The notes under the pieces are model-generated. The model searched no databases, was not told the DNA's origin, and saw only the letters and a program-made list of their open reading frames with translations. This document shows positions 16,101-49,956 of a stretch of DNA of 64,000 bases, in pieces. Numbering within the stretch: the first letter of the stretch is position 1; every line of letters starts with the position of its first letter. Origin of the DNA: Scyliorhinus canicula. Lineage: Eukaryota. The DNA lies in the NCBI RefSeq assembly GCF_902713615.1, contig NC_052147.1:16941865-17005864 (forward strand), written 5' to 3'. The position numbers were made by a program, and so were the translations under genes.

Positions 16101-18825
16101 CTTGAGTACTTTTGCATCCAGTATAGATTCCAGCCAGGTTTTCATGAGGCAGCCTCTGTTCCTGGTCCATGTGCATCCCCTCAGCCTGCCTTCAGTTTCT
16201 GTGCTACATGTGCTTTACTTGCCGCACCGTAATCTGTATACAGTATTGCCACAACACATTTCTTTCTGTGCAACTGTCAAGTTGTGTAACGTTGCCTGGC
16301 CTTTATATTACAGGATCTACAGTTGGAAAAATTCTTCAAGTGGATGTCACCCCCTGCCCCACTCTCCCATGTGTACTTCGCAAAGGAAAATCCTATGCTG
16401 TGAATGTCACCTTTACCAGCAGTAAGTATGTTTTAAATGTAAAATAGGAAAAGAACACACTTCTCTGAAAAGTCTACTGGTTTTTAGTTTGTTGGCAATT
16501 CTTTTTTAAAAAAAAAACACTTTGTCTATATGAAGCTGTGTGTAGAAAGTTTAAATGTTTTATATCTGCTGGCTTGGCAAATATCAAACATTAAATAGCA
16601 AGTTATATTCATTTGATGTTGTAATCTTTTCTGCTTCGAGGGTTACCTTTTATAATGAAACGATGGATGGTGTAGCGGTAATGTCACCAGACTAGTAATC
16701 CAGAGGCCCAGGCTGGTGTCTTGAGTTCCAGTCCCACCATGGAAGCTCATGATAAATCTGGAACTGTGAAACCTGATTGGTTGTTGTAAAAACCCATCTG
16801 ATTCACTATTCTTTTGGGAAGGAAACCTGATGTCCTTATCTGGTGTGGCCCACATGTGACTCCAGACCCACAGCAATGTGGTTGACACTTAACTGCCCTC
16901 TGCAATGGCCTGGCAGACCACTTGTTTCAAGGGCAATTAGAATGTGCATCTGGCCTGGCCAATGGTGCCCACATCCCATGAAAAAATAAAAAATCTGGAA
17001 AATTTTTCAAATAGCTTAATGTATTTGAATTGTTTCCATTACTGAAGAACCTTGTAATGTCTTCCATGTGTTAAATGATCTGTTAAATTTGAAATATGTT
17101 TTGAAAATACATCAGGACTTAGTTTTGAAAGACGGAATTATTTTCCAACTGAGCATGCAAGATAAATATTGAGGGGAGGTTTTTTTTTTCAGATGGGACA
17201 TCATAATCAGCACAAGCTTGGGGGGCCGATGGGTCTTTTCCTGTAGTGTACTTTTCTTTTTTTCTTTGCATTGATGCAAAAAGAAATTACACCCAAATGG
17301 GTGTGCGAAGGAAAATATAACCAACACAAACCTATAAATCCAGTAAAGATGAGGGGGAAACTATTGGAAACTAGAAAAGTGATTAACAGGGGGGGGAAAT
17401 TAAGAGAAAGAAGTCCATATTAGAGGTTCTACAATTAAATTCAAACACACTAATTTTAATGGATGTGCTCATCTGACTCAAAAAGCCCAATCACTAAATC
17501 CCAGTTGCTGGTGTATATTGACTACAGAAAGAGACTATCGATGAACGGGGAGACGCTTCCATCTCCACCTAGTTGTCGTGGTCTTGGTGCTTGAACAAAC
17601 ATATAGGTGTGATCCTGTGTTCTGTTCTTTGCCTGTGATTCTTTTTAATGTGGCAATCTGAGTTAATGAGGCCTAACTGTTGCAACTATTCTTTCTTCAG
17701 AAACATCAAGTCAAACAAGCGTGGCTGCAGTTCATGGGATCCTGAGTGGAATTCCAATTCCTTTTTCTATTCCTAATTCTGATGGCTGTAAATCTGGGAT
17801 TCGGTGCCCCATCCGGAATAATCAGAACTATCACTACATCAATTACTTACCAGTAAAAAACGAATACCCATCAGTAAGTGTTCTCATAATTAGTATGTTG
17901 AAATTAGTATGTTGAACTGAAACATTCACCTGATCTACAGGTTATTTAGTCCTGCTATCTGTTCCATGCAGCCTGCATTTATGTTTAAACACATTTCCTG
18001 CCAGTTAGTTACAAAGAAAATTAGTGCAGGGTGGTGCATCACAGTAGCCTATCCAATGGGAGTGTCACGTGATAGACTTTTTTAACGATATGTGTCCTGT
18101 GTACTACAGGGGCATTCACTATTTTTGACACCTGTAGGGTGTTTAGAACTCTGAAGCCTACTATCTAGTTAAACCAACAAACAGTGCTTTTGTGTATCCC
18201 ATCAACAACAATCCCATCTACTGACTCTCGACAGCACTTACACATTTGATTTGCTATACCTTTCACTTGAAAATTTATTTGAGCTGGATAGAAACTACAA
18301 AAATACACTGCTACAACTGACTCCAATTGGGTTGTCCTTCCCACAGACTAGTGTGAAAGGAAGTGGCACTTTTTTGAGCTCATCAATACCTACACATGCA
18401 ACAGAATATCGGAAGTTTTGGAATTCCACTTTTTTCTTTTTATTCATTCATGGATTGAGGGGGTCTGGCAAGGACAGTATTTATTTCCCATCCCTAACTG
18501 GCCTTAAACTGCTGAAGTCCATCTGGTGTATGTAGACTCCATTCCATTAGTGAGACCGTTGCAGGATTTTGACCCACTGACTGAAAGAACAGAATTCAAT
18601 CCCAATGTCAGTCTAACTTATAAACTATTACCAATTGCCACATCATAACATTCCTAAGTTTAAGAAATGTATATGTGATTAACTTTAATGAACAAATGTG
18701 GTATTAACATTTTGATGTTTTATTTCCCCTTTTCCCAGATTAAGGTGGTGGTTGAATGGGAACTGAAGGATGAAAATAACAAAGACATCTTCTGCTGGAG
18801 GCTCCCTGTGCAGATTGCCAACTAA
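9085..18825 (+). CDS. NPC2: NPC intracellular cholesterol transporter 2, copy A (150 aa); exons 9085-9169, 16314-16421, 17701-17873, 18739-18825
   Basis: Spliced translation [30 protein letters not shown]...PCPTLPCVLRKG...DGCKSGIRCPI...EYPSIKVVVEWEL...IFCW; six ML-domain Cys, GT-AG junctions in phase, AATAAA 19027-19032. Confidence 0.95.
10267..10309 (-). ncRNA. Minimal type I hammerhead ribozyme motif in a Penelope terminal-repeat fragment
   Basis: Minus strand GAATCAC-CTGATGA-A-GGAGC-TGT-GCTCC-GAAA-GC-TA-GTGATTC: intact core, 7-bp stem I, 5-bp stem II. Confidence 0.7.
11560..15215 (-). mobile_element. Degenerate L1/Tx1-like LINE ORF2, interrupted by a Penelope repeat (11770-11975) and a SINE (13543-13865)
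   Basis: Fragments LMNVYAPNWDD (endonuclease), KGRQLSSNIKQLLNVIM, GMRQGYPL, YKDDMLLYV (RT), LPIFIPK..FIWAGKVPRV. Confidence 0.8.
15613..15965 (+). mobile_element. HE1/V-SINE full-length copy
   Basis: Head, V-core, TTCTATG-type tail. Confidence 0.8.
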
Positions 18826-25000: not shown

Positions 25001-28000
25001 CAGTACAGCAGAGAACAAGCCCTTCGGCCCTCGATGTTGTGCCGAGCAATGATCACCCTACTCAAGTCAACGTATCCACCCTATGCCAGTAAGTAACCCA
25101 ACAGCCCCCCCCCATTAACCTTAAAAAAAAATAATTTTTAAAAAAATTATTATTTTTTTTAATGACTTGGTGGGCTGCATAAAGACCGGCCCGCGGGCCG
25201 TAGTTTGCCCACCCCTGCCGTAACCTGACATAACCTTTTATAAATAAATAAGGGACAATTTAGCATGGCCAATCCACCTAACCTGCATATTTTTGGACTG
25301 TGGGAGGAAACCGGAGCACCCGGAGGAAACTCGCACAGACGCGGGAAGAAAGTGCAAACTCCACACAGGCCAGAATTGAACCAGGGAGCTGTGAGGCAGC
25401 AATGCTAACCACTGTGCCACCTTGCTTCCAGCTTCACAAAGTTCAGCCATCGTTTCCAAAGCTGCTATTGGTGTTATTGTGAAATTGCTGGCGGTGCAGC
25501 TATTGGAGAGTCTTTTTTTATCTGGAAAATCTCTGATACTTTGGCCAGTGTATAATCAAAATTCTGGCCAGTGTATAATCAAAATTCTACCGAGGTGCCC
25601 TTTGAACAAAAGGCAAAACAGGTTCACGGTTTAATGTAATTTTATTCACAATTCTCTCAACGAAGTATGATTCAAACTCTCAGCTGAGCTTTAGGTTTTA
25701 CCCGCACTTAAGTGAGGAGGATGGCCAGGCTATAATCACTCTGGATATATTCTCTGGGCTTCAAAACCCAGGCTCTCTGCTTCTGGATGAAAGCAAATTA
25801 CTGCGGATGCTGGAATCTGAAACCAAAAGAGAAAATGCTGGATAATCTCAGCAGGTCTGGCAGCATCGGTAAGCACAGTAAGAAGTCTGACAACGCCAGG
25901 TTAAAGTCCAACAGGTTTGTTTCAAACATGAGCTTTCGGAGCACTGCTTCTTCCTCAGGTGAATGGAGAGGTATGTTCCAGAAACATTTATATAGATAAA
26001 GTCAGAGATGCCGGACAATGCTTGGAATGCGAGCATTTGCGGGTAATCAAATCATTCAGATCCAAAGAGAGGGATAATCCCAGGTTAAAGAGGTGTGAAT
26101 TGTCTCAATCCCGGACAGTTGGTAGGATTTTGCAAGTCCAGGCCAGATGGTGGGGGGGTGAATGTAATGCAACATGAATCCAAGATCCCGGTTGAGGCCG
26201 CACTCATGCGTGCGGAACTTAGCTATAAGTTTTTGCTCTGCAATTCTGCGTTGTTGCGTGTCCTGAAGACCACCTTGGAGAACGCTTGCCCGGAGATCAG
26301 AGGCTGAATGCCCTTGACTGCTGAAGTGTTCCCCGACTGGAAGGGAACATTCCTGCCTGGTGATTGTCGCACGATGCCCGTTCATTCATTGTCGCAGTGT
26401 CTGCATGGTCTCGCCAATGTACCACGCTTCGGGACATCCTTTCCTGCAGCGTATGAGGTAGACGACATTGGTTGAGTCGCACGAGTATGAGCCACGTACC
26501 TGGTGGGTGGTGTTTCCACGTGTAATGGTGGTATCTATGTCGATGATCTGGCATGTCTTGCAGAGATTGCCCTGGCAGGGTTGTGTGATGTCGTGGTCGC
26601 TGTTCTGAAGGCTGGGTAATTTGCTGCAAACAATGGTTTGTTTGAGGTTGCGCGGTTGTTTGAAGGCCAGTAGTGGGGGTGTGGGGATGACCGTGGCAAA
26701 ATGTTCACCTTCATTGATGTGTTGAAGGCTGCGAAGAAGATGTCGTAGTTTCTCCGCCCCAGGAAAGTACTGGACAATGAAGGGTACTCTGTCAGTTGTG
26801 TCCCGTGTTTGACTTCTGAGGAGGTCGGTGCGGTTCTTTGCTGTGGCGCGTTGGAACTGTCGATCGATGAGTCGAGCGCCATATCCCGTTTGTACGAGGG
26901 CATCTTTCAGCATCTGTAGGTGTCTGTTACGCTCATCCTCGTCTGAGCAGATCCTGTGTATGTGGAGGGCTTGTCCATAGGGGATGGCTTCTTTAATGTG
27001 TTTCGGGTGAAAGCTGGAGAAGTGGAGCATTGTGAGGTTTCTGGAACATACCTCTCCATTCACTTGAGGAAGGAGCAGTGCTCCGAAAGCTCGTGTTTGA
27101 AACAAACCTGTTGGACTTTAATCTGGTGTTGTAAGACTTCTTACTGTGCTGACCCCAGTCCAACGCCGGCACCTCCACATCATAGCATCTGTAAGGAGAG
27201 AAAAGAGCTATTGATTTGTCCAGATGACCCTTTGTCAAAGCGAAATGACATAGAAAGTAGGAGATATTTATACTGGTAGGTGAGGGAATGAAAGATGAGT
27301 CATAGCCACAGAAACCCAGGGAAAAGAGTGCTAATAGCAGTCCCCAGAGAGAATAGAAGGTGTGAAAGGCCAAACAGCAGAGAAACTAAAATCAGAGGGT
27401 GAACTGTGACAGATGTAGATGTGGGGGAGGGGGGCATGAGTGGGAGAGAGGGTTAAATGAGGAGAAGGGAGAAGCAAAGGGGGATAAGATCGGGGGAGAA
27501 ATATATATATTCGCAGGTGGGAGGATAGTTGTGGCAGGAAACCTCAATCTTTAAAAAGTACTTGGATGTTGTCATAACATTCAAGGCCATGGGCCTAGTG
27601 CTGGGAAGTGGGATTAGTGTAGATTCAGAGTAGCGTTTGTTTGGTGCAGGCTTGATGGGCCGAAGGGCCTCTTCTGTTCTGTACAATCCTATGGTCTAGG
27701 ATTCTCGATGCAGTTATTCCTTTTACTGCATCAAGGTCTGGCTGATTTATTTGTGTAGTTAACTGAGAAGTGATAATAACTCACCATTACTATTTCAGGT
27801 TCTAAAGCAGAAAACATTATAGTGGATATAACGCCATGCCCCTCTCTGCCATGTGTTCTTCATAAAGGACAAACCTACAGTGTGAACATCACCTTTACCA
27901 GCAGTAAGTGGCTATAATGCAAATCTGAAAAGAACAAAAAAAAAACTGTGCAAATTGTTCAGACGGGGCCTTTACATTTTCACATTGTTTCAACATTTTC

Positions 28001-38978: not shown

Positions 38979-38984
38979 GGCTGG

Positions 38985-39938
38985 TGTTGCACGTTTTACT
39001 ATGGGCGTAAAACGCGTTTATTGGAGTGTATTAACACGCCTCCGAGTTCGACGTGTGCTTAACACTGCTAGGCTCTGTTCTATGTAATTATTTAAGCTCT
39101 GGAGTCGCCAGCTGCCGTATAGGCAACGTCACAAGTATTCCAAGGTCAAATTCAAAGTAATAAAGACGATACACCGATTAGTCAAGTTCAAACGATCAAT
39201 ATTTATTATACAGTTAATAATAAATACTCATGCACACACACACTAAGAGACTAAGCTACAACTAAACATAAGCAAACAGAATACTTATCTAACAGGAACA
39301 GGCAAGGTCAGAGAACGAGGCCTTCGTCCTGGTTTTGTCTGCAGCCTTCAGCAAGCGTTCTGGCACTTGGGAGTCTAGCGGGCTTGGATCGCGTAGCGAG
39401 CGTTGAACTTACGGTTTCGGCGGCTGGTGCTCAACGGCTGGAGTCAGGATACCAGGTGTCAGTCGGGGCCGGAGCACAGGTTTAACAGACCGGACAACAC
39501 GAGGTCCCTATCTTTTATAGGGGTTCCGTTGTCCTTCCCTCTTCTCGGGCGGGCTCTACCTATTGGATCAATTTCTTATCGATACTGGATTAATTCCCCA
39601 ATGCGAGGGGGTCTCCGTGATGGAGGGGGCGTTTCTTATGTCCTTTTGTTCGGAGGTTTCTGGTGCCTCGATGTCTGGGTCTTGATTGGAATGTGTCCAT
39701 TCAGAACCAAATGTATCTATTGTGTGGGTGTTCAAGTCTGATGGCCTCATTAGCATGCAAAGCGTTTTGCCATTTGCACCTAGCTAAGGTCTCTTCACCT
39801 GAGCCCAAACTGGTTTCTGCTGCTGCAGAATGCAAACTGCTCTTTGCAGACTGCTGTTCTGGCTGAACTGTCTGTTTCTCAGCAGCCTTCCATTTTAGTT
39901 TGGCTCAGTGTCCATTTTGCGTGGCCAGCATGGCTACA
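38985..39938 (-). repeat. 3' LTR (954 bp)
   Basis: Direct repeat of 47851-48804 at offset 8866; minus-strand AATAAA at 39202-39207. Confidence 0.95.
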
Positions 39939-39948
39939 TTCCCTCCTT
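39939..39948 (-). other. Polypurine tract
   Basis: AAGGAGGGAA directly before the TG of the 3' LTR. Confidence 0.8.
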
Positions 39949-40266
39949 GTGATCCTCACAATCATACTATTGTGAAGGATCACCTATGTACTTTGCCTCC
40001 TTGTGTTCTGACCTCTTGCCAGTTCCTGTTCTACTCTGTTCTAAACTATGGGAAGAAGAGAAAAAATTTTTTAACTAACATTTCTACTTGGCCCTATGTC
40101 AAAGGGACATGCATTACTACAATTGGGAACCTCTACCTATCACTATTAACCTTAACCTTAACTTAAACATGTAATCACTCTAAACCTTAACCATTCACAC
40201 CACAACATCACACTTCCCAACTCGGCAGTCGAGTATGGAACAATATAATACATGGCTGAATTTTAT

Positions 40267-40620
40267 TTACAGAGTGTTGTAATCAGTGAGGGGTTGAGGG
40301 GTTTGGTGGAATCCGAAGATGGGGGATTGCACTCTATAGATGGGTGAGGTGCTGGAACGAGAGGCTCTCCTCTTCCATTTCCTCAACCTGAGGGTCTGCA
40401 CTAGGATGATGAGGATCGCAATCACCAACAGTGATTCGATTATGTAGGACATGGAGTACCACGTCATGAATTTAGTACACCAGGTCTGAACCTCGCTGAT
40501 CAGAGCTGAGCACTGGGGGTTTGTTGTACTAACATTTACGGTGGGGGTTGTGGGGGAAACGTGTCTTGTTTCCACACATATACATATGACATTAAATAGT
40601 AATAAGTGGGCTTCCATCAT
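40267..40620 (-). CDS. 117-aa small single-pass membrane protein in the env position
   Basis: AAAATGATGG strong start context; hydrophobic N-terminus, S/T/P-rich stalk with NVS sequon, C-X10-C, TM YIIESLLVIAILIILVQTL, polybasic RLRKWKRR, C-terminal YNTL. Confidence 0.7.
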   Translation of the reverse strand: MMEAHLLLFNVICICVETRHVSPTTPTVNVSTTNPQCSALISEVQTWCTKFMTWYSMSYIIESLLVIAILIILVQTLRLRKWKRRASRSSTSPIYRVQSPIFGFHQTPQPLTDYNTL

Positions 40621-41555
40621 TTTGCTGTTCTTCTTCTTTCTCTTCCTTCTTCCTCCGGTATTGACAATCCTGGCTTCGACCTCTGTCTCGTCCTTTGAAA
40701 CCTTTGGGATCAAGCACAGTATCTGTCAATACACAGTTTAAGACCTTTACTTGTTAGTGCATCTGTCTTTCAAAACCCAATTGACCCTTTAAAATGACTG
40801 GCTAAGTCACACCCTGTGACTCCCCTCATTTTTTTTTCAAAAAGCGAATTTAAAGACCAGCATACACCTAACAATCCTTCCTTCTGCGAGCCGTCTCGCA
40901 GGCTTTGCTGATTTACCATCCGAATGTTTCCGGATGTAAATAGCATGTGGGATGGTGGCCGAAGGGCTACCTAACGTAAAATGAAAACAAAATTTGGAAA
41001 GAAACATCCGAATGAGTTGCGTATGGGCCGCTACGGGTATGAGTTGGATGGGATCCCCGGGTAGGGCGTGCTGTGCCATACCCGAGCTTGGCTGACCAAG
41101 GGTTGGTTCTCAGACAGGGCGGGTCCTCAGTGCCGTTTGTCCACTGCCTGAGTAACCTGGAAAAACGGGTACGAATGTGTTTACCATGACTTGCAGCCTC
41201 TATTTCGCCGAATAGAGGGGCACCTAAAAAAACCAAGGGAGCCAAGATGCTCCAACTGAGGACATCACTGAAGTTCTCAGAGATATCTGCAGATAAACTA
41301 TTTGGCGTGTGGCCTTACAACTTTGGAAAAGATCTCCAATCAAACCGAAGTTCTCAAAAGTTTCGGCAGACAAGCTAACGTGTATGTGAGGTGGTCACAA
41401 TCTTTTCAGCTGAAAAGAAGATGTCCATCCTCCAGCTGAAACATTTACATTCCTGAAACAAACAAACATAAAACGAAGACAAACATACGTGCAGGTTCCA
41501 TCAGAAAGGACATCGTTTCCCTCAAACGATTCCTATCTTACATCATCTGGACACC

Positions 41556-44500
41556 TCACTTTGATTCTGCCTCTGTGAACAGGGTCACAAAGGGGTTGCC
41601 GTGTCGGGAGTCAGACATTGCGTCGTCCTGCTCTCCCGGATCCCACACCCTTGTGTGGATCAGGCATGCTATTTTGGAGTTGTGTGACCGGGGGTCACTC
41701 TCGTCATTGCGGACAAGTCTGTAGGAATTGTCCCTGTGCCATTGTGTGGCGTCGAGTGTGTTGTCGGGGTAGTCGGGGTCGGGTGGTGGTTCGGGGTTTT
41801 TGAGGTAAGTGACTTCCATGGGGTCACTGGAGTCGGGGTCGTAGTTGGTGCAGTGTGGGCTGTATGGCTGTGTGGTGTCGCTGTCTTCAGAGTCAGTGTC
41901 TGTCCTACTGTCTCTGCTGTGGCAGCTTGTGGGCGTGTCGGGGCGTGGTCTGTAGTGGTCTGTGGGCGGAGTCATGGGCGAGTCCGTGGATGAACTGGTC
42001 TGTGAGGGGGATGGTGGAAAAGTGTCTCTGGTGGGCGGGGTGAAGTGTTCTGCCGCGTCTAGCAGGACATGGTGAGCATGGTTGGCCTGTGTTCCATAAG
42101 CCTTTAACTGGTTTATATGGAACCACGCGGTCTTCCCATTAGGATATTTGATCCTGTAAACGGAGGGGCTAATTTTGTCCGAAATTGAGTAGGGACCGGA
42201 ATATTTTGGAGCCAAAAAACTGCTGGGGTTATAAACAGATAACATTACCTGTTGCCCAACCTGGAATTCTGTGGTGTGTACGGTCTTATTGAAACAGGCA
42301 GTCCGTTGCTGTCGGCGTTTCCCTAGCTGGACTGCGGCTGCGAGCTGTGCAGACCTCACAGTCTCAACTAGATCTCTAACTGCCTTTTCATGTGTGAGGG
42401 CCGTCACTTCGGGGCTTGTCATGTCCAGTCCTAAAAGGAATTCTGTACCTTTCATAGGGCGTCCGGTCATGAGTGTGTGTGGTGTGTATCCTGTCGATGT
42501 GGAGACAGTGTTCCTTATGAACATAAGTGCAAAGGGGAGCACTGAATCCCATGTGGAATTGTTCTCTTGAACCATTTTCCTAAGGGTAGTTTTTAGGGTC
42601 CGATTCATGCGCTCCACAATCCCGCTGGACTGTGGATGATACGCAATGTGGAAGTTCTGTTTGATTCCGAATATTGTCAGGACGTTCCTCATGACCCGTC
42701 CTGTAAAGTGAGATCCCTGGTCCGAATCGATACTTCGGGGTAAACCCCATCTCGTGAAGATGTGGTGGGTCAGGATCTTTGCAGCTGTCTTAGCTGTGTT
42801 TGTTCGCGAGGGAAATGCCTCTACCCACTTGGTAAAGGTATCTATCACCACCAGAACGTATTTATAGCCATTCCGACAAGGGGGCAATGGACCTATAAAG
42901 TCGATCTGGAGGTTTGTCCAAGGGCCGTTAACTGGGCGAGTATGCCGAAGTTGTGCTTTCTTAGAATACCGCTCCGGGTTATTCTGAGCACAAATCAGGC
43001 AATTCTCTATGTAGTGCGTAACATCATTCCTGAGATCAGGCCACCAACAGAGTTGCCTGAGGTGCCTCGTTGTTGCATCAATTCCCTGATGGCCGTGTCC
43101 GTCATGGAACAAGGCAATCATCTGATTCCTGTCCTGCTGTGGGACCACATAAAGTCGGTCCTTAATGATCACACCCTCATGTGTGGTCAGTGCGTGTTTG
43201 AAGTGCTCGTAAGCAGGCACAAAGTTTCCCTTGAAAACCTCCCTGAGGTCTCCGTCCTGTTTTTGTGCTGCCACGAGGTCTTTAATATCAGTCTGTGAGA
43301 CTTGGACTGCGCTCACAGGGGCGCTAGCTGGTGCGGTAGCTGGGGGGGTCCATAAGTGTCCTCTCCTGGAACCTGCCTTAGCCAACGCGTCGGCTTTTAC
43401 ATTCCCAGGGGGTGATGACCTATGGTGACTTCTTACTTTTATTATGCCGAAGGTCCTGTCCTTCGCTTTCGCTAAAATATGCTGGAGTAGAGGGGCTGAT
43501 GGAAGGGGTTTCCCGTCTGCGGAGACAAAACCTCGTGTCCTCCACAGGGGCAGAAAATCGGTTAAACTGTTACAGACATATAAGCTGTCTGAATATATGT
43601 CTGCTGGGCTGGGGAAAGAATCGGGGTGGTCCACTATGTACGCTATGGCTGCTAGCTCTGCTGCCTGCGCGCCTAAGTGACCTGGTAACTTAAGAGCTAT
43701 CTCTTCGAGAGCGCGCCCCTGCGCGTCCTCTACATAGATGCCGCATCCTGTGATACGCTCACCATTTAAAACTGTGGAGGAACCGTCTACATAAATCCTC
43801 AAGGGTCCACACGTGTCTGTGGGCTGGGGGCTTTGTTTCGGGTTCCCTATCTTCCTGGGGGGTGTTTTGGCTAAAAAGGGTCCTGTGTTATGCAGGGGAG
43901 CTACAATTTCACAGTCATGGGGCTGTCCGGGGTATTGGAGGTTGTCTGCTAAGTATGTGTGGGTGCGTGTCCGTTTTACTGTAATGTCCCGTCCTTGTAA
44001 AAGTAGGGTCCACCTAGCTGCCCTAATCTGGCTAACTGAACCGTCCTTCAGTCGACCGTCTAGGAGTAGCTGTGTGGGTGTATGTTCGGTTAGAATGGTG
44101 ATGGGGTTTAGTCCGGTTATGTATGAAAAGTACTGTACTGCCCAGAAGACAGCAAGGAGGTGCCTCTCACAGGCTGAAAATCCTTGTTCTACCGGGTCTA
44201 ACAGTCGGGAGGCATAAGCCACTGGTCTTAGCTGCTCGTGCCGTTCCTGAAGCAACACGGCCGAGAGGGTTAGATCTGTGCTAGCTACCTCGATTGCGTA
44301 CGGTGAAAGTTGGTCGGGGACTAGCAGCGCGGGTGCTGCACTAAGGGCTCGTTTCAACTCTTCCACAGCGCCTGTATGCTGCGGAAGCCATTCCCAGGGG
44401 GCTCCTTTCTTAAGGAGGTCTGAAAGTGGGGCGGCTTTTGTCGCGAATCCGTCGATGTGGTTCCGACAATAGCCAACCAGTCCTAAAAACGACCGGAGGG

Positions 44501-45782
44501 CTGATACATTCTGGGGAAGGGGCAATTTGACAATCGAATCAATTCTTTTGAATTCGATCTCGCGTTTGCCGTGCGTGATGACTGATCCCAAATACATCAC
44601 TTTACTTTCCAATATTTGGGCCTTTTTCGGGTTAACTTTACAGCCAATTTCAGTTAAGAGTTCCAGGAGTTCGGCCAGAAGCGAAATGTGCTCTGCCTTT
44701 GTGTCTGTCTGCAGTAGTAGGTCGTCTACATACTGTACCAGACATTCGGGTCGGGAAAATTTTTCTAATCCACTTGCCAGCTGTCGGTGGAAAATGGAGG
44801 GGGAATTGTGGAATCCTTGTGGGAGGCATGTCCACGTGTACTGCTGTGTTTTAAAAGTGAATGCGAATTTGTATTGGCACGCTTTTGCCAATGGTATTGA
44901 CCAGAATCCATTACTGATGTCCAATACCGTGAAGTACTTGGCGTTGAGACCCTGCTTGAGCATGGTCTCGGGACTAGTAGCTACCGTTGGGGCTACTGCG
45001 GGGGTTACTTTGTTGAGTTCCCGATAATCGATGGTCAGACGCCATGATCCATCGGGCTTCCTCACTGGCCAAATAGGGGCATTGTTGGTGGAGGCTACCG
45101 TTCTCAGTACACCTTGGTCCAACAAGCTGCCTATAACTTTTTCTATTTCCACCTCTGCCTCGAGGGGAAATCTATACTGCTTTTGCGGTCGGGGGTCCTG
45201 TCCGGTAACATGAACTTGTCCAGTCATTCTGCCACAGTCATGACGGTGACTTGCAAATGCTGTCCTGTGTTTGTTTAGTAGGGCCTTAATTTGTCGGTCG
45301 GTGTGGAGTGTAGTCAGGTCGAATGAGTACTCTCCCACTGCGCTAATCCGATTAGCGTAGTCTCCTACTGTGAGGGTGGCTGGGGCTCTGTCTGATCTCG
45401 CCATTCGCCAGACACACTGGTTCACTGGGTCGAACGACAAGCTGTGAGCGTTCATGAAATCTATCCCCAGGATGTGCTCTGCTGTCCGGGGAAGATTTAC
45501 TAAAACTACGGGGTGCCTTGTGCTAATGTTCCCTAGCTGGATCGCTACGGGTGCTGTGATATGTCCCTGCTGCGAGTGTCCGGTGAACCCGCTAAGTGTG
45601 ATGGTGGAGGTGGTCGGCCACGTGTCTGCGTGTGCCGTGGTTGTGGAGTTAATGGTGGTGCGGGATCCTCCTGTGTCCCACAGTAACTCTATGGGCTTCC
45701 CTTTGACTTTTGCCGTGACTACGGGCCTCCCTGATGAGTCCCATAGTGTGTCACAGACCCAAGTGGGGGAGCCCGAACACCG
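41556..45782 (-). CDS. pol: Pro-Pol (protease, RT, tether RNase H, RNase H, integrase), in frame with gag
   Basis: LLWDTGGS at ~45669-45677; LDISNGFWS, LPQGFHNSP, YVDD; RPVAYASR tether; YVDGS..AQAAEL..YSDS..GNVKADALA; HHCC and DDE integrase with GPY module. Frame open from 45782, 109 codons upstream of the listed ATG. Confidence 0.93.
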   Translation of the reverse strand, partial: RCSGSPTWVCDTLWDSSGRPVVTAKVKGKPIELLWDTGGSRTTINSTTTAHADTWPTTSTITLSGFTGHSQQGHITAPVAIQLGNISTRHPVVLVNLPRTAEHILGIDFMNAHSLSFDPVNQCVWRMARSDRAPATLTVGDYANRISAVGEYSFDLTTLHTDRQIKALLNKHRTAFASHRHDCGRMTGQVHVTGQDPRPQKQYRFPLEAEVEIEKVIGSLLDQGVLRTVASTNNAPIWPVRKPDGSWRLTIDYRELNKVTPAVAPTVATSPETMLKQGLNAKYFTVLDISNGFWSIPLAKACQYKFAFTFKTQQYTWTCLPQGFHNSPSIFHRQLASGLEKFSRPECLVQYVDDLLLQTDTKAEHISLLAELLELLTEIGCKVNPKKAQILESKVMYLGSVITHGKREIEFKRIDSIVKLPLPQNVSALRSFLGLVGYCRNHIDGFATKAAPLSDLLKKGAPWEWLPQHTGAVEELKRALSAAPALLVPDQLSPYAIEVASTDLTLSAVLLQERHEQLRPVAYASRLLDPVEQGFSACERHLLAVFWAVQYFSYITGLNPITILTEHTPTQLLLDGRLKDGSVSQIRAARWTLLLQGRDITVKRTRTHTYLADNLQYPGQPHDCEIVAPLHNTGPFLAKTPPRKIGNPKQSPQPTDTCGPLRIYVDGSSTVLNGERITGCGIYVEDAQGRALEEIALKLPGHLGAQAAELAAIAYIVDHPDSFPSPADIYSDSLYVCNSLTDFLPLWRTRGFVSADGKPLPSAPLLQHILAKAKDRTFGIIKVRSHHRSSPPGNVKADALAKAGSRRGHLWTPPATAPASAPVSAVQVSQTDIKDLVAAQKQDGDLREVFKGNFVPAYEHFKHALTTHEGVIIKDRLYVVPQQDRNQMIALFHDGHGHQGIDATTRHLRQLCWWPDLRNDVTHYIENCLICAQNNPERYSKKAQLRHTRPVNGPWTNLQIDFIGPLPPCRNGYKYVLVVIDTFTKWVEAFPSRTNTAKTAAKILTHHIFTRWGLPRSIDSDQGSHFTGRVMRNVLTIFGIKQNFHIAYHPQSSGIVERMNRTLKTTLRKMVQENNSTWDSVLPFALMFIRNTVSTSTGYTPHTLMTGRPMKGTEFLLGLDMTSPEVTALTHEKAVRDLVETVRSAQLAAAVQLGKRRQQRTACFNKTVHTTEFQVGQQVMLSVYNPSSFLAPKYSGPYSISDKISPSVYRIKYPNGKTAWFHINQLKAYGTQANHAHHVLLDAAEHFTPPTRDTFPPSPSQTSSSTDSPMTPPTDHYRPRPDTPTSCHSRDSRTDTDSEDSDTTQPYSPHCTNYDPDSSDPMEVTYLKNPEPPPDPDYPDNTLDATQWHRDNSYRLVRNDESDPRSHNSKIACLIHTRVWDPGEQDDAMSDSRHGNPFVTLFTEAESK

Positions 45783-47531
45783 TCAGTTCGTCTCGTCCAC
45801 ATTGGTGGGTCCTGACTGTACTGCTACATTGTGGATTGGTTTTGCTTTGTTGCGGTTCAGAGTGCCTGTCTGCTGGCCTCTCTGAGATCGCTGGGGTGCA
45901 TTACACTCTTTTGCCCAATGCCCTAACTGTCCACAGTTATAGCATTCCTGTCCTTTCTGTTGAGGGCTGCTCTTGCCTTCATTTACCCATGCGGGCTTCT
46001 GGTGCTCTCTGACTGCTTGGATATCTGCAGCAGCCTGAGCCTCTTCTGGGGATCTAACCTTTCCTTTTGCCTGAAGCGATTGCTCCCAAGCGCGGGACAA
46101 TCTTTTCAGGACCCATTTTTCGTTATGGGCCTCTTCTGAGGGGTCGTAACTATTGCAAGCGCTCTGTCCTGCTTCTGTTGCGTGTGAGATAATTGTGCGC
46201 GTCCATTTAACCATGTTTTCGCGGGTTAAATGCGCTCTATCTAGCTGTCCGAAAACTGCGCTGAAATGAATCCACAGCCTTCCTGCGAATGCTGTGGGGT
46301 GTTCAGATCTCTTCTGCCTGCACTTATTCAAGCCTTCTACGGGGTCACCTCTATTGTACCCGATGGCATCTAAAATAGCAGTGTGCATCTCCTCTAGGCT
46401 GCCTCCTGCCACGTTTTGTGGGTCGGGGAGGGCTGCCACTACACTCTGGTCTAAGCTCAACACGGTGAGCTTAACCTGCTCTCTCTCATCCAGGCCGTAC
46501 ATGGTAGCCTGCTGTTTTACTTTCGCGAAGAACTGGTGGGGGTCTGCGGTGGGGAGGAACGGAGTGATCTTTTCACAAGCGTCCCTTAGCTGGGTTACTG
46601 TTAAAGGGGTGGTGTAAGTTATGTCTGGGGCGCCTTCTGATTCGGCTTTCCTCTGTGTGGTTACGGGATTCATGGGTGCGGTTATGATCTGAGCTGTGGG
46701 GGGTTGGGGTGCCTGTCGTTTCTGCTGAGCTGCGGGCGCACATGTTCCCTGAACATAACGCTGCGCTGTCTCGCTTAATTCCTGCCAATCTGGGGCGTTT
46801 TCCCCATCTAACTGAGCTCCAAAGGTGCTTTGGAAGCCATTCTGCACCGAAAGCAGAGATTGCAGTTCCGCAATCTGTTTTCTGCATTTCGCGTGGTCAA
46901 CTGTGCTTTGTCTTTGTTCGGTTGTTGCAGCATGGAGTGCTCTCAAAGCTGCTTTGAGATCGGAACATTGCCTCTGCAATGCCTCCACCTGCTTCTCCGA
47001 TTCCTGTCTTATCAGAACGGCACGTTGCACGTCCTGATAGGCTTTCTCATACTGGGTCTGGGAACTGTTCAGATGAGCTAGACAAGACTGGTGAGCCCTC
47101 TTGGCATCATCCACCTCTCTACCCTTCTCTGCCAACTTCCCTTTAAGATCCAGGTTTTCTTTCTCGATGTCCCTGACATCGACCTTACTCATTCGGTTCT
47201 TTTCCTCTAAATCTGTCCGGAGCGTCCTGATGACCTCCTCTGCGCCTCGCAACTGTGCCAAGCAGGACACAATCGCCATCGGCTTGCGTGCTTTACCTAA
47301 ACTCTTTTTGTGTATCTGAGAGAGGTTCTCCCACCAAGTATGACCTATACTTCCGGGACCTGTCTCCTCATTTGCACAAAACTCTTTCCAAAGGGGCCAT
47401 CCCTTTCCCTGCAGATATTTGCGGAGTTCCAGCTCCCACGTGGGACACTGGCCTACCCTGCTACTGCTGCTGGTCGCTGCGACCACAAACTTTGCTGGAT
47501 CCATCAGACGTTCCATTGCCTGCATGGCCAT
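45783..47531 (-). CDS. gag: Gag (582 aa) with long coiled-coil segment and one CCHC zinc knuckle
   Basis: First ORF after PBS; CYNCGQLGHWAKEC; heptad-rich region ~aa 90-230. Confidence 0.9.
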   Translation of the reverse strand: MAMQAMERLMDPAKFVVAATSSSSRVGQCPTWELELRKYLQGKGWPLWKEFCANEETGPGSIGHTWWENLSQIHKKSLGKARKPMAIVSCLAQLRGAEEVIRTLRTDLEEKNRMSKVDVRDIEKENLDLKGKLAEKGREVDDAKRAHQSCLAHLNSSQTQYEKAYQDVQRAVLIRQESEKQVEALQRQCSDLKAALRALHAATTEQRQSTVDHAKCRKQIAELQSLLSVQNGFQSTFGAQLDGENAPDWQELSETAQRYVQGTCAPAAQQKRQAPQPPTAQIITAPMNPVTTQRKAESEGAPDITYTTPLTVTQLRDACEKITPFLPTADPHQFFAKVKQQATMYGLDEREQVKLTVLSLDQSVVAALPDPQNVAGGSLEEMHTAILDAIGYNRGDPVEGLNKCRQKRSEHPTAFAGRLWIHFSAVFGQLDRAHLTRENMVKWTRTIISHATEAGQSACNSYDPSEEAHNEKWVLKRLSRAWEQSLQAKGKVRSPEEAQAAADIQAVREHQKPAWVNEGKSSPQQKGQECYNCGQLGHWAKECNAPQRSQRGQQTGTLNRNKAKPIHNVAVQSGPTNVDETN

Positions 47532-47827
47532 TTCCTCTGACTCTCTTTTTATAATTTGGAACAGGGGGTTGCTGGGGTGGTGTTTCGTAAAAAGGGTACG
47601 GCTTACGCTATTTTCCGATTACAAAACTACCGAAAGTTTGTCGCAACAAAAAGCTTTCAGTTTTACCTTACAGCCCTGTTAGTACGCATGCACTAAAACA
47701 CACTTCCGAATTTCGCTTATTATTTTGAACACCTTGAATACTTGTGATCTCTTTCTTTCTCTGCAATTTGGAGTTCTAATTCAAATTTCAGGGTCCTGGA
47801 CACTGTGGTGTTTCCACTTGCAACAGG

Positions 47828-47845
47828 ATCCCACCAGAGTCGCCA
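47828..47845 (-). other. Primer-binding site, tRNA-Arg(UCU)
   Basis: TGGCGACTCTGGTGGGAT, complementary to ...AUCCCACCAGAGUCGCCA, the 3' end of vertebrate tRNA-Arg(UCU) as recalled. Confidence 0.8.
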
Positions 47846-47850
47846 CTAAA

Positions 47851-48804
47851 TGTTGCACGTTTTACTATGGGCGTAAAACGCGTTTATTGGAGTGTATTAA
47901 CACGCCTCCGAGTTCGACGTGTGCTTAACACTGCTAGGCTCTGTTCTATGTAATTATTTAAGCTCTGGAGTCGCCAGCTGCCGTATAGGCAACGTCACAA
48001 GTATTCCAAGGTCAAATTCAAAGTAATAAAGACGATACACCGATTAGTCAAGTTCAAACGATCAATATTTATTATACAGTTAATAATAAATACTCATGCA
48101 CACACACACTAAGAGACTAAGCTACAACTAAACATAAGCAAACAGAATACTTATCTAACAGGAACAGGCAAGGTCAGAGAACGAGGCCTTCGTCCTGGTT
48201 TTGTCTGCAGCCTTCAGCAAGCGTTCTGGCACTTGGGAGTCTAGCGGGCTTGGATCGCGTAGCGAGCGTTGAACTTACGGTTTCGGCGGCTGGTGCTCAA
48301 CGGCTGGAGTCAGGATACCAGGTGTCAGTCGGGGCCGGAGCACAGGTTTAACAGACCGGACAACACGAGGTCCCTATCTTTTATAGGGGTTCCGTTGTCC
48401 TTCCCTCTTCTCGGGCGGGCTCTACCTATTGGATCAATTTCTTATCGATACTGGATTAATTCCCCAATGCGAGGGGGTCTCCGTGATGGAGGGGGCGTTT
48501 CTTATGTCCTTTTGTTCGGAGGTTTCTGGTGCCTCGATGTCTGGGTCTTGATTGGAATGTGTCCATTCAGAACCAAATGTATCTATTGTGTGGGTGTTCA
48601 AGTCTGATGGCCTCATTAGCATGCAAAGCGTTTTGCCATTTGCACCTAGCTAAGGTCTCTTCACCTGAGCCCAAACTGGTTTCTGCTGCTGCAGAATGCA
48701 AACTGCTCTTTGCAGACTGCTGTTCTGGCTGAACTGTCTGTTTCTCAGCAGCCTTCCATTTTAGTTTGGCTCAGTGTCCATTTTGCGTGGCCAGCATGGC
48801 TACA
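47851..48804 (-). repeat. 5' LTR (954 bp) with promoter
   Basis: Minus-strand CCAAT ~48427-48431, GC box, TATAAAA 48385-48379, donor GTAAGT 48278-48273, AATAAA 48073-48068. Confidence 0.95.
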
Positions 48805-49956
48805 CTGGGATTCTCTGCTTTCCGGCGGGCGGGCCGTACCGGTGCCAGGGAGTCCGGCTGCCGGCGGGGCGAGGTTCACCCTGCCCCCTCCGGCCCTGTG
48901 GGGGGGTCGGAGAATTCCGTTCAGTGGGTTGAAAAACACTGACGCAATTTCTCAATTGTGGCGTGTGACGCTGTCAACTTCGCTTTGGGCATCAACAAAG
49001 AGAAAAAACATCGCACAAGGATAGCCCCACATAATCCAACACAAACCCATACTCATGGCTGGCCCAGCCATGCCCAAGGGTGCAATGGGGCTGCAGCATT
49101 TGGCACTGTTCGCAACATGTCGCCAGACTCTTAATGTTGGCATCAATGCCAGGCCACCATACATAACTTCTGGTGAGCATCTTCGTCTTGGATATAAACG
49201 GATGGGCACTGTGCACTAACTCCATTCCTGTACTCCGTTTGGCCGGCAGCCCGGGGGGGGGGGTTTCCCGTTGCCCCACAATGGGAAACCCCACTGAACA
49301 GCCAGCGTAATGGAGCATCCAGCCAGCGGGGTGAAATGGAAATGGGACGGGGGGGGGGCAGAGAATTCAGCCCCCAGTATCTTTGCTCTGGCACATCAGG
49401 GACTGGATTCTCCAATAATGGGGCTATGTCCCTATGCTGGTGTTTCACTCTGGACTTTCCTTAAGAAAGTCCTGAGTGATTCTCCCATCTGCAGGGGGCT
49501 GGCAGGGCCCCGGAGTGCTTCTAGCAGCTCTGGCTGCGGATACGGGGCCCCTCACCTCCAATCGGGAGTCCGCACATGCACATGGCAGCGGGTTGCAGCG
49601 GCCGCCCCGTGGGACATGGCGGACATTAGAGCGGCATCTAAAATGTACCCCCCCCCCACCGAGGTTGTGTGTGCCCACGTGTTCGTGACGCACAATCGTT
49701 CCCCTGGCCGTCCATGAGGCCGCCCCCCCTCCCCCCACCCGGTGATCGATCCCCTCGCCCCCCCCCCCACAGTTTTGCACAGAGAATCGCGGCGGGGGGG
49801 GGGGGGGGGAGGCTCTGACAATGGCTCCCTATCCGCGCCGCATAGTTCGCACGCGAGAAACCCCTGGGCATGCGGCCACTGCGTCGAACGTGATTTAGAC
49901 ACAGAGGCTCATAGAATCCAGCCCCATGCCTCCAGCTAACAGCCCTGGTAAGATTG

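Follow-up and report, generated by a model that had tools for sequence, protein, structure and literature searches.

A stretch of 64,000 nucleotides of Scyliorhinus canicula DNA (the window) holds an endogenous retrovirus (ERV) of class III, in the snakehead retrovirus (SnRV) clade, that has no env and is still amplifying. In the env position it carries a small open reading frame (ORF), which is a genuine gene under purifying selection and which encodes a predicted type I membrane glycoprotein of 117 amino acids (40267 to 40620, minus strand). The preliminary description of this DNA had placed a 117-aa ORF in the env slot, and we recovered it at 40620 to 40267 with the residues as quoted; the accompanying view that this is a small membrane-protein gene of a vertebrate retrovirus was borne out, in that the gene is genuine, selected, and transcribed. 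The layout is new within a known retrovirus clade, and the protein family that it includes lacks known relatives. In the openly searchable literature, we found no case of a small membrane protein standing in for env in a vertebrate retrovirus.

Structure and placement of the provirus

The provirus spans 9,820 bp of the minus strand (38985 to 48804), has TG...CA ends, and is flanked by a 4-bp target-site duplication, CCAG (38981 to 38984 and 48805 to 48808). Its 5' long terminal repeat (LTR; 47851 to 48804, minus strand) and 3' LTR (38985 to 39938, minus strand) are each 954 bp long and 100% identical. The 5' LTR contains a TATA box (48385 to 48379) and an AATAAA signal (48073 to 48068), and poly(A)-like loose ends fall within it at 48050 in read run X22. 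A polypurine tract lies at 39939 to 39948 (minus strand). The primer binding site (47828 to 47845, minus strand) is probably of the tRNA-Arg(UCU) type. Loci L091 and L093 hold a 44-nt copy of the tRNA 3' half with TTCTAA at the anticodon loop, an unbroken complement, and ARAGORN called no Arg tRNA gene in four loci. In the leader of the window element (47769 to 47845), a second stretch beyond the 18-nt primer site is complementary to the tRNA anticodon arm.

The gag gene (45783 to 47531, minus strand) encodes 582 aa from its first Met, with an N-terminal coiled coil and one CCHC knuckle, and ends in TGA in frame with pol. No Gly2 and no PT/SAP, PPxY, or YPxL motif was found in Gag. The pol gene (41556 to 45782, minus strand; 1,408 aa) encodes protease, a snakehead-retrovirus-like reverse transcriptase (RT), tether, RNase H, and integrase. 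Past the integrase, 41556 to 42090 encodes an extension of about 175 aa rich in Pro, Ser, Thr, and Asp; its C-terminal part is conserved, and the extension is absent from the amphibian and coelacanth relatives that we aligned.

Between pol and the small ORF lies a 935-nt spacer that holds 16 upstream AUGs and a conserved noncoding block with several hairpins (40780 to 41180, minus strand). DNA identity in this block is 70 to 76% across older families, at least as high as the DNA conservation of the ORF itself, and the block is the site of highest RNA depth. It had no Rfam match. Its hairpins are without covariation support, and their z-scores, for which the alignment columns of related sequences were shuffled, do not establish a structured RNA. 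The block is possibly an export, packaging, or translation element; SnRV likewise requires a cis-acting sequence in its 3' region, according to the accessible text of PMC12193657.

Some other structures accompany this family. Two pol-deleted copies (L102 and L104) retain gag and the small ORF and have 99% LTR identity, which implies that nonautonomous derivatives are also young. Two copy pairs (G000:C3:20729625/20738491 and C1:102284925/102293791) lie 8,866 bp apart, a spacing equal to the element length minus one LTR and therefore that of tandem proviruses with a shared LTR. Elsewhere in the window, two exon-like copies (16339 to 16427 and 27821 to 27909), 82% identical and with a splice donor, encode a translation that resembles NPC2; they suggest tandem host paralogues.

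We assigned the element to the SnRV clade on the basis of its RT motifs and the layout of its Gag, with the probable type of its primer site as a possible further parallel. Compared by eye with the RT alignment in the available part of the PMC7947760 supplement, its RT shares the SnRV motifs. The nearest Pol proteins were amphibian and coelacanth records named "NYNRIN-like" (40 to 51% identity), and an RT tree in which SnRV was not included set the element among amphibian and coelacanth class III-like Pol proteins, with support left open. The primer site of SnRV is that of an Arg tRNA. SnRV Gag is described as lacking a myristoylation signal and as having a coiled coil and a single zinc knuckle, with gag, a stop, and pol in frame (PMC2717909, in the text available); the catshark element is alike in its Gag coiled coil, single zinc knuckle, and lack of Gly2, in having gag and pol in frame across a stop, and in the tether plus RNase H of its Pol. 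The class III SnRV group corresponds to clade Huo of the Retroviridae in the accessible part of PMC6001957. The difference lies in env: SnRV has a full env plus ORFs of 52, 94, 76, and 205 aa (PMC12193657), whereas in the catshark family env is missing and a single conserved membrane ORF takes its place.

The "NYNRIN-like" names had prompted us to consider a lokiretrovirus, an identity that we rejected on the RT motifs, since the loki RTs printed in the available text of PMC7947760 deviate at motifs where the catshark RT agrees with SnRV. A dual RNase H is present, as in lokiretroviruses, and is a feature common to all retroviruses. No ORF for a lokiretrovirus-type Env (paramyxovirus F-like, PF00523) was found within the element; a PF00523 search of the whole genome came back blank, and its control was equally blank, so that search is uninformative. 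ERV-L is also a class III element without env (PMC8278194). However, ERV-L has a dUTPase and no zinc knuckle-type Gag, and the accessible part of that paper describes no replacement membrane gene, whereas a Pfam search found no dUTPase domain in the catshark element.

A conserved gene in the env position

The small ORF starts 935 nt past the pol stop and ends 328 nt short of the 3' LTR. It is preceded by an enhancer-like, noncoding tract (40621 to 40657, minus strand) that is purine rich in differing frames in 26 distinct coding sequence (CDS) contexts. We considered a longer protein or a furin site, given the 35 open upstream codons that include RRKR, and rejected both: across 30 position-ordered copies, the frame upstream shifts while the ATG stays, so the RRKR is accidental. 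The start is intact in 27 of these first 30 copies by position, in agreement with the earlier claim that the ORF has a start of its own.

By hydropathy and rule, aa 1 to 18 (40567 to 40620) form a signal-peptide-like segment with a short h-region and a 19-residue hydropathy peak of 1.2, ending in most relatives in small, cleavage-type residues. The S/T/P-rich stalk (aa 19 to 45; 40486 to 40566; 44% S/T/P) carries an N-glycan sequon, N29-V30-S31 in the window ORF, and varies in length; the mature ectodomain would measure about 40 aa after the predicted cleavage, and the stalk reaches about 50 aa in older families. The conserved core (aa 46 to 88; 40357 to 40485) consists of an aromatic membrane-proximal helix with one Cys, a transmembrane segment (TM; approximately aa 59 to 77) that is the sole TM-length peak (hydropathy, 2.5), and a conserved polybasic patch at aa 78 to 88. 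Apart from a nearly invariant buried Glu62, the TM is strongly apolar (moments of 0.08 to 0.35). In the cytoplasmic tail, a Tyr...Pro-hydrophobic motif (aa 95 to 106; 40303 to 40338) is present in 59 copies, with its Tyr in 57 of the 59. All of these segments are on the minus strand. An AlphaFold model (mean pLDDT, 66.8; pTM, 0.33) has helices at 3 to 18 and, continuously, at 35 to 89; aa 89 to 103 have a hydrophobic moment of 0.3 to 0.5 yet are Pro rich and modeled as coil. The basic patch and the sequon point to an N-out/C-in orientation, and the sequence as a whole suggests a type I surface glycoprotein of approximately 100 residues.

Next, we asked which of these features belong to the family. 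Down to the oldest families, copies keep the Met after the purine tract, the signal-peptide-like segment, the sequon-bearing stalk, the aromatic helix, the TM Glu, the basic patch, and the tail motif. The sequon is present in 26/26 distinct young CDS and in 15/15 listed N-termini, the latter preselected by a signal-peptide-like pattern, and Gly2 (an MG start) is absent from both sets. Thus, the signal-like start, the sequon, and the juxtamembrane polybasic motif of the preliminary description all hold for the family. Two other motifs that it had singled out hold only in part. The cystine loop (C37-x10-C48) exists in the window ORF, and its first Cys is found in 29/29 young copies, but that Cys was matched in 0/20 older copies; the membrane-proximal Cys persists in 16/20 older copies, and a TM-end Cys occurs in many relatives. 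The YxxL tail, YNTL at the C terminus, is present in the window ORF and in 13/30 young copies but in 0/29 older ones (13/59 in total; tail counts were made after 22 spurious regex rows had been removed by eye).

A degenerate motif for the ORF gave 1,945 exact matches in the genome and 0 in the control, and 135 of the 150 scored matches encode the identical protein. Between subfamilies, dN/dS was 0.18 to 0.22 in 10/10 pairs. Over all pairs of the 26 distinct CDS, pN/pS was lowest in the core (0.08) and highest in the stalk (0.53), which is the least constrained part of the ORF; the signal region and the tail each had a value of 0.34. In five of six pairs, the dN/dS of the core was 0.046 to 0.124, the remaining pair being saturated; this is similar to the values for pol of 0.073 and 0.090 in the two valid pairs. 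The pol rows of L101 and L107 were excluded as out-of-register artifacts (pN of 0.24 to 0.47 against 93% protein identity).

The env slot was then followed across the lineage. Among 30 copies chosen by their pol end, 29 have the ORF within 1.5 kb of it, and none of the 30 has a stop-free frame longer than 189 aa after pol. An RT motif search that left out the young family's codon returned 571 further SnRV-like RT matches. An ORF homologue lies about 0.8 to 2 kb past pol in 18/20 older loci fetched by this RT selection and is present in 9/16 additional RT-selected older loci, in which no env-like ORF of at least 200 aa was recognized. Ten short RT-selected segments at the expected ORF position gave the ORF in five cases, spacer only in one, LTR in one, and nothing recognizable in three. 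Conservation in related elements, which had been proposed as a check, was therefore found, with the same slot in 18/20 older loci and a dN/dS of about 0.2. The statement that the ORF does not look like an env stump was also supported: no longer env form was found in the 30, 20, and 16 loci, and there is no detectable homology to the C-termini of gamma-type Envs from the same genome. Gamma-type env gave 78 matches in this genome, alongside a different pol (mostly 24 to 46% over integrase), and has no similarity to the small ORF; two of these copies, on unrelated ERVs (L119 and L127), have stop-free env frames of 563 aa. In a frog relative's Pol model (P0004), the C-terminal 130 aa comprise a signal-peptide-like segment and a segment that is Ig-like by eye, with which a gene in the env slot of the frog element may begin.

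Searches for relatives of the small protein returned nothing significant in Pfam, PDB, IMG/VR, the Atlas (no score of ≥0.9), or a single-sequence search. A 21-sequence profile matched a single protein in a set of 7,638 candidates; run against 1.84 billion representatives, it matched 5. The one protein and four of the five are gene models of S. canicula and S. torazame, so the gene is in at least two catshark species; the fifth match is a 2,944-aa repeat protein (E, 4e-4). Database homologues of 156 to 454 aa were considered as longer viral forms and rejected as gene models that fuse other sequence to the ORF exon. One of them, a HEPACAM2-like gene model of S. torazame (P0128), ends in the TM and tail of the ORF; the viral anchor may have been exonized there, or the model may be an annotation artifact. 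A Mustelus record contains fragments of a related Pol. The small protein represents a new family of predicted type I glycoproteins without known relatives, found only in Scyliorhinus records.

Earlier surveys offer two points of contact. A catshark study reported 293 retroviral elements with no Gag or Env domain detected, in the accessible text of PMC10699275, and those elements may include the present family. A survey of active ERVs demanded an intact env, according to the available text of PMC10435555, and would for that reason miss it.

Transcription of the small gene

We used four read runs from three studies, of which X23 and X24 are bulk oligo-dT runs from one study. In both, the polarity of the reads was that expected for sense RNA. 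Sense depth in X24 was 89 to 211 over 39939 to 41418 versus 13 to 38 over 41715 to 47634, and depth in X23 was 32 to 56 versus 0.5 to 10 over the same intervals; X22, a single-cell run, had no clean step. Oligo-dT 3' bias contributes to the 3' excess, clearly so in X23. Motif counts in the genome are similar for RT (2,200), the pol end (2,639 with three mismatches), and the ORF (1,945), and 25/30 ORF-bearing copies include the pol end; copy structure is therefore not the cause of the depth step. Given this 3' RNA excess, a subgenomic RNA for the small ORF is likely.

A candidate major splice donor, GTAAGT, lies in the R region upstream of the primer site (48273 to 48278, minus strand) and occurs in the window and in 4/11 other copies whose LTRs passed a TATA-anchored scan, at 75 to 85% LTR identity. 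On the other side, a candidate branch site (A 40726) and acceptor (AG at 40703 to 40702) lie within 40702 to 40728 (minus strand), 81 nt short of the ATG; the interval from the acceptor to the ATG is free of upstream AUGs. The branch-like stretch aligned in 18/20 other copies, and the match to NCBI gene models P0124, P0125, and P0128 begins at the candidate acceptor. No splice-junction reads were listed in the four runs, and RNA depth peaks upstream of the acceptor; a donor near the cap would probably be poorly sampled by these reads. Taken together, these features suggest that the mRNA of the small ORF is probably spliced to the acceptor 81 nt before its ATG.

Possible roles of the small protein

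The preliminary description had likened the protein to the reovirus FAST proteins, which have 100 to 200 aa, one TM, an N-out/C-in orientation, and a juxtamembrane polybasic motif, with an ectodomain of 20 to 40 aa that contains a myristoylated or cystine-loop fusion peptide and with an amphipathic helix in the endodomain (PMC7830690, in the text available). The catshark protein resembles p10, p14, and p15 in its 117 aa, its single TM-length peak, its polybasic patch, and its aromatic membrane-proximal region. However, neither type of fusion peptide is a family feature of the catshark ORF. As the description itself had cautioned, FAST proteins have no cleavable signal peptide, their TMs being reverse signal anchors in the accessible part of the same review, whereas the catshark ORF has a conserved signal-peptide-like N terminus. 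With no Gly2, a Cys loop and YxxL that are subfamily specific, and a conserved signal-peptide-like start with a glycosylated stalk, the protein is by its sequence not a FAST member, and the label should be dropped. The insect precedent that had been invoked is real, yet its authors were unable to reproduce fusion in culture, as far as the available text of PMC11952523 goes. Cell-cell fusion and soma-to-germline spread by the catshark element, as first proposed, would be one way of reading these features.

The reading that we prefer, tentatively, is that the small protein acts as an Env-independent factor for handing capsids over at cell contacts, by analogy with insect sORF2. The copy number by itself does not call for transfer, since retroviral elements that lose env and multiply within the germ line are known to become abundant. 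With neither a myristoylation signal nor late motifs, Gag would plausibly form capsids in the cytoplasm and need a membrane partner to exit the cell. The small protein would reach the plasma membrane, where the aromatic helix, the Cys, and the TM would let it cluster. Through the basic patch and the Tyr/Pro motif of the tail, it might bind the capsid and also cortical actin or trafficking adaptors. The protein could then build a contact site or protrusion through which capsids pass to a neighbor, for example, a germ cell, by a local pore or vesicle. Such a protein would be sORF2-like in purpose and neither a FAST protein nor a maker of syncytia on its own.

Several results are consistent with capsid hand-over. 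The core of the ORF is as constrained as pol (0.046 to 0.124 versus 0.073 to 0.090), the signal peptide and glycosylated ectodomain are kept and would have no obvious use in a purely intracellular retrotransposon, the ORF holds the env slot in 29/30, 18/20, and 9/16 loci with no env seen, and X24 has its 3' RNA excess at similar motif counts. In insects, elements that lack env but encode a small TM protein pass from soma to oocyte, and sORF2 of the MDG1 group lies downstream of pol in 7/22 lepidopteran cases (PMC11952523, in the part available). These insect proteins likewise combine an env-less LTR element with a small single-TM protein, an amphipathic ectodomain segment, and a basic patch. 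They differ in belonging to the Metaviridae and in having 63 to 107 aa, an ectodomain of about 30 aa, and mostly myristoylation, whereas the catshark ORF belongs to the Retroviridae and has a signal-peptide-like start, a glycosylated stalk, and no Gly2. Proteins of the sORF2 type are reported only from insect elements, nackednaviruses, and picornaviruses in the accessible text of that study. Against hand-over, a mucin-like stalk that bears glycans would tend to keep membranes apart, and PPxY or LPxY precedes the tail motif in only 5/29 older and 0/30 young copies. The RNA evidence also carries caveats: no reads across a splice joint were listed, the depth maximum lies upstream of the candidate acceptor, oligo-dT brings 3' bias, X23 and X24 come from one study, and X22 is without a clean step. 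The broader proposal, that a retrovirus lineage long ago swapped Env for a new glycoprotein of about 100 residues that ferries capsids from soma to germ cells by fusion or contact, is more doubtful.

Two other roles would use the same surface protein differently. It could be an accessory antagonist of a host restriction factor or immune receptor, rerouting its target via the TM and tail while the element copies itself inside germ cells. Vpu and glyco-Gag are models for counteracting host membrane factors, and the type I topology, variable mucin-like stalk, and conserved TM with its buried Glu and tail would suit such a function. Viruses of the SnRV clade are complex, with small accessory ORFs (PMC12193657), and the weakest Pfam matches were K1 and adenovirus E3A, both of them small immune glycoproteins of viruses; at E values of 0.09 to 0.3, these fall below the cutoff and are not significant. 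We consider this role unlikely, given that interfaces of host conflict usually evolve fast whereas the ORF core is nearly invariant and that the position exactly in the env slot would be left unexplained. Less probable again is a self-sufficient fusogen of the FAST type, with the aromatic membrane-proximal helix as fusion peptide and syncytia arising from expression alone. The size, single TM, ectodomain of about 40 aa, aromatic helix, polybasic patch, and TM-end Cys of many relatives follow the FAST layout, but there is no Gly2, the first Cys is missing in 20/20 older copies, C37 and C48 sit on one helix in the AlphaFold model, and the conserved signal peptide, N-glycan site, and stalk of up to about 50 aa do not fit. 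No sequence or Atlas link to FAST proteins was found, although these share no sequence among themselves anyway.

It is also conceivable, but very unlikely, that the ORF is a vestige of Env, in which loss of SU and most of the TM subunit brought the signal peptide next to the membrane-proximal region, membrane anchor, and tail, and that it now anchors capsid assembly inside the cell for retrotransposition in the same cell. Both ends of an Env have likenesses in the ORF, namely, the position in the env slot, the signal peptide, and the acceptor upstream on one side and an aromatic stretch leading into a Cys-ended TM on the other, and Gag is without a membrane-targeting signal of its own. However, none of the 30, 20, and 16 loci has a longer form, the ORF contains no furin, ISD, or CX6CC remnant, and a profile of the ORF, when compared with the C-termini of 24 gamma-type Envs from this genome, scored a probability of 1.2% (controls, 0.4% and 0.5%). 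The least likely reading of all is a viroporin-like oligomer that permeabilizes secretory or plasma membranes and aids particle release. Class IA viroporin-like proteins encoded after the rhabdovirus G gene have an aromatic N side, a central TM, and a highly basic C side (PMC4334499, in the accessible text). The catshark ORF shares these hallmarks with the BEFV alpha1 type, as well as a place next to the glycoprotein position, and its TM has the polar, nearly invariant Glu62; unlike that type, it adds a signal peptide and a mucin-like stalk. Influenza M2 was among the weak Atlas look-alikes, but its score of 0.84 is below the lead level of 0.9 and within the chance range. Apart from Glu62 the TM is strongly apolar, and leaky membranes would be costly for an endogenous element with thousands of transcribed copies.

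Env-less vertebrate ERVs have been assumed to be confined to the cell that produces them. Over a long radiation, the catshark family, which lacks env and numbers thousands of copies, has conserved a surface-type glycoprotein as strictly as its polymerase, and the role of this small protein would be a requirement of retroviral replication that lies outside the gag-pol-env scheme. The envelope-free cell-to-cell route reported in flies is now testable for vertebrate retroviruses. If capsid hand-over is true, it would be the first Env-independent infectious route in the Retroviridae, one that had arisen in parallel to insect sORF2 and the FAST proteins of reoviruses and that still operates in a living shark.
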